Shown: positions 696 to 59,399 of the stretch, piece by piece | How positions within the stretch are numbered: position 1 is the first letter of the stretch | Layout: every line of letters starts with the position of its first letter | NCBI GenBank assembly: GCA_014905635.1 | Contig: JABVCE010000012.1 | Coordinates: forward strand, 992,001 to 1,056,000 | Origin: Scenedesmus sp. PABB004 | Taxonomy: Eukaryota | Reading direction: 5' to 3' | Length of the DNA stretch: 64,000 nt | Notes under the pieces: generated by a model | The model's database searches: none | Seen by the model: only the letters and a program-made list of their open reading frames with translations | Told to the model about the DNA's origin: nothing | Program-made: the position numbers and the translations under genes

Positions 696-2147
696 TCAGC
701 GCACGTGCTCGTGGGGCTGCAATCCCTGCTGTTGTTGCTCCAGCGGCTGCTGCTGCTGCTGCTCCTGCTGCGCTCCCGGCGGCGCGGGCAGCGCCGCCAC
801 CGGCTGCCGCCGCGCCGCGAGCGCGGCCGCGAGGCGGCGCCGCGCCGCAGCGCCGCGCGCGAGCACGGCACGCACCGCGACCGCGAGCAGGCGGTAACCC
901 CGCGCCGAGCACGCCTCCGCGGCGAACAGGCGCCACGCGCAGCGCCGCAGCAGCGCGGCGCAGTGCGCCGCCGCCGCGAGCCGGCCCGCGCCGAGCAGCG
1001 GCAGGAACACGGCCTGCGCGGCGGCCGCGGCAGGCGGCGGCGGCGCTCGCGCGTCAGAGCGCGCGCAGCAGCAGCGGCGCGCAGCAGCAGCGCGCCGCCC
1101 GCCCGCCGCGGCCCGCGCCGTCCCGTGCCTGCGCAATCACGCCGCCGACCGTCGCGCCGAGGGCCATGCCCGCAAACGCGTCCGCGTTGGGCGGCGCGGG
1201 CGTGAGGGCCATGAGGCTCGTGTACCACCACACCTGCACCATCGTCGCGCTGTCAAAGCGCTCGCGAATGGCGGCGAGGACCTCGGGGCTGGGCGGCTGC
1301 GCGCGGGGGGTGCGGTCGGCGGCCGGTGGGTCGCGGCGCGCCGCAGAGCGCGCAGAGCACGCGCGCGCCGCGCCCACCTGCCGCGCGCCGCCCAGCGGCA
1401 GCGTCACCGACAGGTGCCGCAGCGACTGCGCCGCCGGCGGGCGCTGCGGCGCGGCCGGCGGCGCCGGCGGCCGGCGCTGCGGCGGCGCCAGCAGCCGCGG
1501 CGGCGGCGCCAGCAGCCGCGGCGGCGGCGGCGGCGGCGCGGCGCTCTGTACCGCAGCTATGCTGCGGTACGTCGCCAGCGCCCTCAGCAGGCCGCTGGCC
1601 GCCACGTAGGCCCGCCACGCGCCGTGCAGGAGCGCAGCGATGGTGTACGGGTCGGCGAGCAGCGCCGGGACGAGCACCAGCGCGCCGCCCTCGCCCGGGC
1701 CGCCGCCGCCGGACGCGGCGAGGCCGGCCGTGTCGTAGCGCGCCTGGCAGACCTCGCAGCGAATCGCGCGCCGCGGGCGGCCCTGCTCGCGCGTGACCTG
1801 CAGCCAGTGCTGCGCGGGCGCGGCGGCCGCGGCGGGCGCGTCGGCGGGCCGTCAGTGTCCCATGCGTGCGGGCCGCTGCGCCGCCGCCGCTGTCGCCGCG
1901 CGGGCTGGCAGCGCGCCGGTGGTGGGCGCCGGGCAGCCTGGTGGCGGCGCCGGACCTGCAGGCACGCGACATGGATGTACGCCATGCTCCCCTTGCACTT
2001 GCACGGGCTGACCAGCGTGGCCGTGTCGTCGCCCCCCCAGCAGAGCCGGCAGCGGCGCCCGTCGCCGGCCTCGCTGGCGCTGCCCGGGGCCGCGCCGCCG
2101 CTGCCCGCCGCGCCGCCGGCGCCGACGCCGGCGACCGGGGCCGCCAT
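696..2147 (-). CDS. RING-CH (RINGv/MARCH-type) E3 ubiquitin ligase, 3 exons
   Basis: Spliced translation CRLCWGGDDTATLVSPCKCKGSMAYIHVACLQ|HWLQVTREQGRPRRAIRCEVCQARY gives a C4HC3 pattern. Hydrophobic segments follow. The second intron has a GC donor (CAG|gcacgg) and the stop TGA is at 696-698. Confidence 0.85.
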
Positions 2148-2827
2148 AGCACAGCGCTGGCGGCCCGGGCGGGGGTTGCGGGTCGCCCGGGGGCGTGCAC
2201 TGCGTCGCCCTGCGCCGCCGCTGCTGCTGCCTCAGGTCAGGGGCGCGCGTGGATGACGCTGCCGTCGGCGTCGAGGACTGCGAGGTCACAGGCCGCGTTC
2301 TGGCGGAGCGCAGCAGGCAGAGGAGCACGGAGGAGTCGCGAGCCGACTGCACCGCTGCCGGAGCTCGGCGGGCGCTCGGCGAGGCTGCGCGGCCGCCCCT
2401 GCAGCTCCACCAGAACGCTCGGCACACACAGCCTGCTCCGCAGCTCCAGGAGACGCACCAGGTGCGCCGGCCTGAGCGCGGTGCCCGCACGCCGCGCCGC
2501 GCCCAGCGGCCCGCGCGCCGCGCCGGTCGCTTCCCTCGGCTGGGCGCGGCTCCCGGCGATCGCCGCGACCGCGCGCGCAGCCGGCGGCGCCGCGGGGGCG
2601 GCGCTGCCGCCGGCCGCTGCTGCCGCGCGCCGCGCTCGCGGCCAATTGCCCGGCCGCGCCGCGGCGCGCCCCGGGAGGCCGCCCACGGCCCGCCCCGACC
2701 GCCCCGCCGCCCAATGCAGCTGCGCAGGCGGAGCAGCGCTCCGCGCCGCGCCGGCGCCTGGCCGCGCGCGCACACCACACAGCAGCGATCGAGGCCCGCG
2801 CCGGCAGGCGGTGGCGGCGGCGGCGGA

Positions 2828-58800: not shown

Positions 58801-59399
58801 GCCGCGCGCAGGCGGTGGACGCGTGGGCAGTCGGCGTGCTGGCCTATGAGCTGCTCACCGGCAGGCGCGCCGCTGGCCTGCTGCGCCGCGCGCCGGCGGC
58901 GGGGCGGCGCTGGCGCCCCGGTCGCCGCTGCCGCCCGCCGCCGGCCAGGCGCGCGCCGCGCGCGCGCCCACGCGCCGCCGCGCCGCTGCGCCGCCGCCGC
59001 AGGGCGCCCTTCTCGGCGGTCGGCGCGACCGACGTGGCGGTCGAGGCGGCGATCCAGGCGAGCAGCCCCGTCTTTCCCAGCCGCATGTCGGAGCCCGCCG
59101 CGGCGTTCATCGCCGCGGCGCTGCAAAAGGCGCCCGAGCGGCGGCCGACCATCCTGGCGATGCTGCAGCACCCCTGGATCCGCAGCTTCACGCGCTCCAG
59201 CTCCAACGGCCGCGCCGAGCGCCGCCGCTCGCGCGAGGGCGGCGGCGGCGACGCGCGGCCGTCGCCCGCGCCCGCGGCCACGCCGGGGCCGGGCCCGCGG
59301 CCGGCGCCGCCCGCGCCCGTCGGCGCGGGCCTGCCGCACCTCGCCGCCAAGTCCCAGGACGACAGCGCCCTGACCGGCTACGCGAGCGCAGGGCGCTGA
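55891..59399 (+). CDS. Aurora-like Ser/Thr protein kinase (algal ALK-type) with long N-terminal extension, multi-exon
   Basis: WSLADFVVQRKLYDGYASTICK, VALKLY, VAREARLHASLDHEHI, HRDIKPENVL, KVADFGLA, GTLDYMAPEV, VDAWAVGVLAYELLTGRAPF and MLQHPWI. Four upstream exons are phase-consistent. Confidence 0.92.

Follow-up and report, generated by a model that had tools for sequence, protein, structure and literature searches.

The window analyzed in this work is a stretch of 64,000 nt of nuclear DNA, with many short introns, of the sphaeroplealean green alga Scenedesmus sp. PABB004 (GenBank assembly GCA_014905635.1, contig JABVCE010000012.1, positions 992,001 to 1,056,000, forward strand), and the subject of the analysis is those of its introns which begin with GC instead of the canonical GT and end with AG (GC-AG introns). 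Within nine genes of this window, four of which encode paralogous GH31 alpha-glucosidases, GC was found to be the donor at 19 of 76 robustly placed, non-duplicate junctions (25%; Wilson 95% interval of approximately 17–36%), with the consensus AG/GCGCG(C/G). This bears out an earlier note on the same DNA, which had reported frequent GC-AG introns with an AG/GCGCG donor, nearly all of them preceded by AG. In fact, each of the 19 GC donors follows an exon ending with AG, as compared with 13 of the 57 GT donors (Fisher test, 9e-10). Moreover, one GC donor is retained between old GH31 paralogues, and at another fixed intron position of these genes GT and GC replace each other. Most probably, these sites would belong to genuine U2-type spliceosomal GC-AG introns, unusually common owing to the extreme GC content of the genome.

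Census of donor sites in nine genes

The genes were aligned with homologous proteins using a splice-site-agnostic protein-to-genome aligner allowing introns in all three phases, and constrained versions of this alignment were also run. For each intron, all donor and acceptor positions within 30–45 nt were enumerated, the exons were joined in silico, and the joined peptides were scored against the homologues by BLOSUM62 local alignment. In the final census, all 16 donor dinucleotides were permitted within a range of 36 nt and the acceptor was fixed as AG; a junction was considered robust when its margin over the next solution was at least 5 units per homologue. This AG-anchored rule replaced an initial one, based on fully agnostic top-tie sets (124 rows, 110 kept, 83 with GT and 27 with GC), because one-residue chance matches at junctions pushed several canonical sites off the top; in those earlier sets an AG member was present at most junctions.

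The sets of homologues consisted of six proteins for prolyl-tRNA synthetase (ProRS), six for CCT5, seven kinases, six alphaproteobacterial NuoD open reading frames (ORFs; loci L001–L018) for NAD7, and six ORFs from metagenome contigs carrying NRAMP without introns (L081–L087). The GH31 genes (copies A to D) were scored against protein P0122 and the model of the other GH31 paralogue; when the complete GH31-A ORF was used as a query, just two proteins were retrieved. P0122 (953 aa, 79% identical to GH31-A) is encoded on a contig of 3597 nt, which must therefore be intronless. Copies B, C, and D were rescored without protein P0121, because it annotates the same DNA and its read-through moved one junction by 24 nt. 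Three CCT5 fragments of 95–99% identity (P0123, P0124, and P0126), considered as possible spliced transcripts, turned out not to be spliced and were rejected. The MnmA gene, for which comparison with five alphaproteobacterial MnmA ORFs yielded a single usable junction (GT at 54083) besides two without a clear solution, was kept out of the census.

Altogether, 121 junction rows were obtained, from which four of 33–60 nt (18872–18904, 21611–21670, 27319–27372, and 33086–33139, in GH31-B/C/D) were dropped as alignment gaps. These stretches are in-frame and have no splice signals, and it is more likely that they are copy-specific insertions relative to the homologues. Among the remaining 117 rows, the best donor was GT in 89, GC in 27, and GG in one. 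The robust rows numbered 108 (83 GT and 25 GC), and the nine weak ones comprised six GT, two GC (3111 and 16937), and one GG (NRAMP, 37162). As GH31-B, C, and D are 93–95% identical in protein and thus not independent, GH31-C and D were taken out, which left the non-duplicate robust set of 76 rows (57 GT and 19 GC). In this set, GC donors make up 4/10 robust junctions of ProRS, 3/11 of CCT5, 1/10 of NAD7, 1/7 of NRAMP, 5/7 of the kinase gene, 2/15 of GH31-A, and 3/16 of GH31-B.

The effect of GC donors on the gene models is evident from the alignment scores obtained with GT donors only, with GT and GC donors, and in the splice-agnostic mode, which were, respectively, 1889, 2109, and 2124 for ProRS; 1957, 2322, and 2339 for CCT5; 427, 699, and 718 for the kinase; 1090, 1232, and 1245 for NAD7; 736, 837, and 875 for NRAMP; 3027, 3211, and 3220 for GH31-A; and 2070, 2366, and 2401 for GH31-B. 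In the models limited to GT, 10–39% of the score was lost and whole exons were missing, and adding GC donors restored nearly the full splice-agnostic score. When each of the 15 other dinucleotides was allowed in turn as an extra donor of ProRS, GC was the best. The models have stop-free open frames (1569 nt in ProRS, 1608 nt in CCT5, 1161 nt in NAD7, 2847 nt in GH31-A, and 2826 nt in GH31-B), and their exons are joined in frame to a conserved protein, with gap-free, top-scoring junctions against two to seven homologues per gene.

In DNA of 78% GC, where GC constitutes 20–25% of all dinucleotides, one has to consider that the GC calls reflect nothing but this abundance and that splicing in fact takes place at GT or other sites close by. 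A single case of this kind was met, i.e., junction 9 of CCT5, which the constrained aligner put on GC at 45617 and which was rejected, since enumeration over a wider range moved it to the canonical GT at 45665. This shows that single aligner calls are fallible, and only enumerated, margin-tested junctions were therefore counted. For the census as a whole, such an artefact is very unlikely. Although all 16 dinucleotides were allowed, 116 of 117 best solutions were GT or GC. Within the introns, GC accounts for 25% and GT for 2.7% of dinucleotides, and with this 25% as background, GC at 19 of 19 robust non-GT donors would be expected with a probability of about 4e-12. At eight GC sites scored against six homologues each (four in ProRS, three in CCT5, and one in NAD7), the best GT-AG alternative was 78–276 summed BLOSUM units lower in four cases, and in the other four no such alternative was present within range. 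Furthermore, a strict extended motif accompanies the GC donors and not the GT donors, and one GC intron (14529) is present in the public annotation.

Sequence context of the GC donors and its possible origin

Donor logos were compared for the non-duplicate robust set. On the exon side, A occupies position −2 in 25% of GT donors and in 100% of GC donors, and G occupies position −1 in 86% and 100%, respectively. On the intron side, the GT and GC donors have G at +3 in 96% and 89% (the other 11% of GC donors having A), C at +4 in 74% (with A in 21%) and 100%, G at +5 in 95% and 100%, and C at +6 in 60% and 68%. Exons ending with AG are followed by 19 GC and 13 GT donors (approximately 60:40), and exons with other ends by no GC donor and 44 GT donors. 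In U2-type GC-AG introns, the remaining donor positions follow the consensus more strongly, and this kind of compensation is seen here, the GC donors being nearer to the consensus than the GT donors at −2/−1, while the mean number of matches to CAG/GTRAGT is alike (5.7 for GC and 5.8 for GT). The strong exon-side pairing proposed in the earlier note agrees with these numbers.

In other respects the two classes of introns resemble each other. Their median lengths are 143 nt (GC) and 140.5 nt (GT), and the acceptor, whose AG was imposed in the final census, is CAG/G in both, with C at −3 in 97% and G as the first exon base in 73%. In robust introns, the tract preceding the acceptor is C-rich, not T-rich. 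That the GC introns could be of the U12 type (removed by the minor spliceosome) or non-spliceosomal is the least probable of all explanations considered, the sole point for it being that the donors are not GT. The U12-type donor box is (A/G)TATCCTT, whereas the donors found here read GCGCG(C/G), and their CAG acceptors and lengths are those of the GT introns. Thus, they share with U12-type introns the departure from GT-AG, but not the donor box nor, apparently, the branch-site signature, and they depart from the GT donors of the same genes only at +2 and at −2/−1.

The excess of GC donors may be explained by base composition. The introns consist of 7.6% A, 45.2% C, 39.8% G, and 7.4% T (85% G+C), and at unconstrained intron sites, with approximately 85% G+C and 7% T, there would be a steady pressure on the T at +2 to become C. 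For such a C to be tolerated, the other positions of the 5′ splice site would have to keep enough pairing with the U1 small nuclear RNA (snRNA), which would be the case where the upstream exon ends with AG and the intron reads GCG at +3 to +5; elsewhere, +2 would stay T, and the acceptor would remain CAG. This would amount to a conditional rule, under which AG-ending exons take either GC or GT, in the above-mentioned proportion, and all other exons take GT only, and the resulting introns would presumably be removed by the standard major spliceosome. GC pressure, which the earlier note had named as a possible driver, is therefore plausible given this composition, and the same explanation was published for Emiliania huxleyi and for pelagophytes (PMC4028052; bioRxiv 10.1101/2024.10.30.620910).

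Alternatively, the splicing machinery itself might have changed, GC donors having become equal to GT donors through an alteration of U6, of a protein factor, or of the U1 5′ end, the last-mentioned, for instance, by a base pairing with C as well as U at +2. The canonical 5′ end of U1 is ACUUACCUG and the canonical U6 box is ACAGAGA. In both classes, positions +3 to +6 of the donors (GCGC or GCGG) are a poor match to the canonical U1 5′ end, C being present at +4 in 74–100%, hence some adaptation of the machinery to GC-rich sites is conceivable, and the share of GC is very high in some genes (5/7 in the kinase gene). Nevertheless, this alternative is quite unlikely, because a U1 able to pair with C at +2 would need no help from the exon side, yet such help accompanies every robust non-duplicate GC donor and none of the 44 exons without AG is followed by GC. 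The strict AG dependence thus points to the canonical base opposite +2 in U1. An Rfam scan of the 64-kb window matched no family and no snRNA gene, so it gave no positive evidence for a variant snRNA. From the relaxed recognition of the 5′ splice site put forward in the earlier note, exon-side pairing and GC pressure fit the data, whereas a variant U1 or U6 is not needed and fits less well.

The GH31 cluster allows a comparison of the same introns in different gene copies. At GH31 position 248, the donor ctacag/GCGCGC occurs in all four copies at the same position and in the same phase, although copy A has only 65–67% protein identity with B, C, and D; GC donors must therefore have persisted long enough to be inherited. 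At position 428, copy A has gagcag/GC and copies B, C, and D have gcccag/GT, in each case after CAG, which indicates that, after an AG-ending exon, GT and GC can replace each other without a change of intron position. These observations also bear on sequencing. Some sequencing chemistries are prone to bias when the GC content is extreme, and systematic T-to-C miscalls or polishing errors at +2 of GT introns might imitate GC donors. Such errors would not select AG-ending exons, nor would they recur as the same GC at three positions of each of the separate copies B, C, and D, one of these also being shared by copy A, and we consider this explanation highly improbable.

Several points weigh against GC-AG introns generated by genomic GC pressure, or limit what can be concluded about them. 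Firstly, the GC share at AG-ending exons (59%) is lower than the neutral C/(C+T) value of 86% expected from intron composition, so either C at +2 falls short of full neutrality or the sites are not yet at equilibrium; probably, some cost of C at this position remains. Secondly, the GC calls at 3111 and 16937 are not preceded by AG; they lie in poorly conserved N-termini, have margins of 1–1.2 per homologue, and may be wrong. Thirdly, as an extra donor of ProRS, CG regained most of the gain (2071 versus 2109, with 1889 for GT only), because CG sits one codon downstream of each ProRS GC site; hence, the case for GC rests on the exact gap-free junctions and not on the total score. Furthermore, each junction relies on protein homology, and the joined proteins are backed only by transcripts of relatives. 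Finally, the share of GC swings from 1/10 (NAD7) to 5/7 (kinase) between genes of one 64-kb window, so the genome-wide frequency may differ from that given here.

Genes and introns of the window

The G+C content of the window is 75–82% throughout, with no N, which agrees with the composition published for the PABB004 assembly (39.8 Mb, 78.5% GC, 7,092 genes; PMC12571836). The coding sequences of the gene models have 70% G+C, with 94.5% at third codon positions. Of a total of 582 stop-free ORFs with at least 60 aa, the Pfam search covered 150, selected by the GC contrast between third and second codon positions, and genes without a match among the 150 may be missed. The search showed densely packed eukaryotic genes, each broken into many short exons in differing frames. 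At least 15 genes are recognizable in this way, i.e., a RING-variant gene, ProRS, NAD7 (the 49-kDa subunit of complex I), four GH31 alpha-glucosidases, NRAMP, FKBP, a DUF7880 protein, CCT5, an ERGIC/ERV-domain protein (named PDI-C in the earlier note), MnmA, a Pkr1-like protein, and a protein kinase. The closest named homologues of ProRS and CCT5 come from Sphaeropleales (Tetradesmus, Raphidocelis, Monoraphidium, Scenedesmus, and Chromochloris). In addition, region 59545–63998 contains very long open frames, of 1080 and 1175 aa, which overlap each other in different frames and show a strong codon-position GC contrast, and for which no Pfam match at an E-value of 0.01 or better was found.

The aligned part of ProRS (3014–6275, plus strand) was recognized by Pfam and by homologues P0003–P0015, which are 73–83% identical to it on one exon, and has 10 robust introns, six GT-AG and four GC-AG. 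The first of the latter (3660–3834), caag/GCGCGG...GCAG/g, was the unique best solution with a margin of 36 over six homologues and no GT-AG option within 36 nt. The others are 4334–4539 (gcag/GCACGC, margin 41, best GT-AG option 78 lower), 4648–4787 (gcag/GCGCGG, margin 66, no GT-AG option), and 5116–5314 (gcag/GCGCGC, margin 66, best GT-AG option 115 lower). The earlier note had counted four GC donors among 11 ProRS introns; the four are right, the robust junctions total 10, and the eleventh, at 3111, is only weakly placed.

The nuclear NAD7 gene (7304–10594, plus strand; Pfam PF00346 on five ORFs) contains 10 introns, nine GT-AG and one GC-AG (8204–8346, tgag/GCGCGC), the latter being the exact top solution with a margin of 33 and no GT-AG option. 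One exon of this gene is 80–87% identical to alphaproteobacterial NuoD, and its intron 8482–9016, with 535 nt, is by far the longest in the census, where the others have 68–263 nt. The nuclear location of NAD7 is usual in Chlorophyceae.

The NRAMP metal transporter gene (35564–38252, plus strand; Pfam PF01566) has seven robust introns, six GT-AG and one GC-AG (37601–37756, caag/GCACGG), which was the exact top solution, the best GT-AG option being 216 lower. There is also an ambiguous, probable GC-AG intron at 37138–37304 (gcag/GCGCGG), for which a GG donor 24 nt downstream (37162) scored two summed BLOSUM units more over the six homologues; no GT-AG option exists, and the donor consensus favors 37138 over the GG at 37162. 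An orthologous NRAMP gene with five introns, all GT-AG, was found on a 2.7-kb metagenome contig of 71% GC (L126:1242–2717). It has two intron positions in common with the gene of the window and an extra intron (1727–1857) within what is a single exon there (36072–36221), and the contig ends before both GC donors of the NRAMP gene of the window are reached.

On the minus strand, CCT5, which encodes the epsilon subunit of T-complex protein 1 (45113–48461; Pfam PF00118 on eight ORFs, homologues P0128–P0138), contains 11 introns, eight GT-AG and three GC-AG. All three GC-AG introns, i.e., 47090–47246 (caag/GCGCGCC, best GT-AG option 276 lower), 46788–46924 (caag/GCGCGCG, no GT-AG option), and 45167–45332 (gcag/GCGCGCT, no GT-AG option), were exact top solutions, so that the three GC donors ascribed to this gene in the earlier note are placed at 47246, 46924, and 45332. 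The protein kinase domain (57315–59186, plus strand; Pfam PF00069, seven homologues) is interrupted by seven introns, and enumeration of its junctions gave the same proportion as had been claimed for it, five GC-AG (57600–57690, 57772–57900, 58281–58373, 58685–58811, and 58865–59002, all robust) and two GT-AG.

The GH31 genes form a cluster (11549–34722) in which copy A lies on the minus strand and copies B, C, and D follow in tandem on the plus strand. GH31-A (11549–17326), compared with P0121 and P0122, has 15 robust introns, 13 GT-AG and two GC-AG. One of the latter, 15546–15675 (acag/GCGCGCAAGC), has a donor conserved in GH31-B/C/D and is read through in the public annotation; the other, 14382–14529 (gcag/GCGCGCC), is also used by the public model P0121 and has GT at the same position in GH31-B/C/D. 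The NCBI name of P0121 is 'alpha-glucosidase [Scenedesmus sp. PABB004]', and most GH31-A exons are 100% identical to it. An exception to the divergence between copy A and the others is found in the C-terminal 88 residues of P0121, which are 93–94% identical to the last exons of B/C/D, and this similarity points to gene conversion or to a very strong constraint acting on the 3′ end of the genes.

In the aligned part of GH31-B (18426–23242), 16 robust introns, 13 GT-AG and three GC-AG, were distinguished. Intron 19349–19481 (acag/GCGCGCAAGC) was the exact top solution with annotation-independent homologues and has no GT-AG option, intron 19558–19660 (cgag/GCGCGCG) was the best AG-anchored solution with a margin of 17 over two homologues, and intron 20206–20357 (ccag/GCGCGG) was again the exact top solution with no GT-AG option. 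The GC-AG introns of GH31-C (24266–28929, 93% identical to B) are 25106–25236, 25313–25417, and 25963–26064, and those of GH31-D (29924–34722, 94% identical to B) are 30825–30955, 31032–31134, and 31689–31832. Intron 31296–31477 of GH31-D has the donor GTTAGC in place of GTGAGC present in B and C, and its junction scored 18 below the agnostic top; this copy may be starting to decay or may be using a weaker donor.

Considering the earlier note as a list of sites, all 16 coordinates given there carry GC at the named base, and 14 of them (3660, 4334, 4648, 5116, 8204, 19349, 19558, 20206, 37601, 57600, 57772, 58281, 58685, and 58865) were recovered as robust unique best donors. The exceptions are the ambiguous 37138 and, in GH31-B, 18305, which is upstream of everything that could be aligned with a homologue and is without the exon-terminal AG common to all robust GC donors. 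The candidate GC donors named in the note for PDI-C (three) and for the RING gene (one) belong to genes outside the nine of the census.

GC donors in other algae and consequences for annotation

An excess of GC-AG introns is known from other GC-rich algae. In Emiliania huxleyi (65% GC), 56–65% of donors are GC, as confirmed by reverse transcription PCR, expressed sequence tags, and RNA-seq, and the AG acceptor is invariant; automatic gene models mispredict GT junctions in this species, and the authors ascribe the GC donors to GC content (Feldmesser et al. 2014, BMC Genomics 15:148, PMC4028052). The alga studied here resembles E. huxleyi in that its genome is GC-rich, GC makes up tens of percent of its donors, and the AG acceptor is kept. 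However, in E. huxleyi the GC donors are an RNA-confirmed majority, whereas here, in a member of an unrelated lineage (Chlorophyceae) with approximately 78% GC, they amount to about 25%, as determined by protein homology. The strict dependence on an exon-terminal AG is seen in the window, and no such statement was found in the text on E. huxleyi available to us, its logos aside (PMC4028052).

For the pelagophytes Aureococcus anophagefferens and Pelagomonas calceolata, 14–17% of introns were predicted to be GC-AG, which was ascribed to high GC content, in comparison with 0.32% in the less GC-rich relative (bioRxiv 10.1101/2024.10.30.620910). Again, GC donors reach at least 10% of introns in very GC-rich nuclear DNA and the acceptor is AG, but those figures are annotation-based and concern stramenopiles with 0.1–0.9 introns per gene, while ours are homology-based and come from one window with 7–19 introns per gene. 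In plants, introns are on average 98.7% GT-AG and 1.2% GC-AG (PMC6310983). The GC-AG introns of PABB004 share their dinucleotides and acceptor with the usual U2-type GC-AG introns found in plants and animals, although they are about twenty-fold commoner than in plants. The literature search, with most subscription journals outside its coverage, retrieved no report of a GC-AG excess in Sphaeropleales or other green algae. Apparently, this is the third independent algal lineage with a GC-driven shift of the 5′ splice site, and the first green one known to us, the points of note being the scale of the phenomenon in a green alga and its consequences for annotation.

As had been foreseen in the earlier note, gene finders preferring GT are misled by these introns, and the window provides one direct example. 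When P0121 was mapped back to GH31-A, it contained one GC-AG intron (14529), and thus the annotation pipeline accepted at least one such intron. At 15675, however, P0121 passes the GC donor and continues to a GT 24 nt further on, which adds eight residues between '...LTYR' and 'VIGG...' that are absent from the intronless P0122. Gene models of PABB004 and of other extremely GC-rich green algae are consequently expected to be wrong wherever the predictor prefers GT.

The PABB004 assembly was reported to have the most gene-family contractions among Scenedesmaceae genomes (PMC12571836). The density observed here, at least 15 genes per 64 kb, extrapolates to more than 9,000 genes in 39.8 Mb, as compared with the 7,092 annotated, and so a part of the reported contraction may be annotation loss. 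A more far-reaching view would be that the spliceosome and the extreme GC content evolved together, C at +2 being read after AG as a second regular donor code by an altered U1 5′ end, U6, or associated protein, that GC-AG introns make up at least 25% genome-wide, the highest share known in green plants, and that the low gene count and the family contraction are largely annotation artefacts; we regard it as rather unlikely. Returning to the explanation by GC pressure on ordinary U2-type introns, the clean rule that GC occurs only after AG allows one to measure, by means of sequence alone, what a C at +2 costs in fitness. GC-AG introns in this alga are of importance mostly because gene finders are misled by them.

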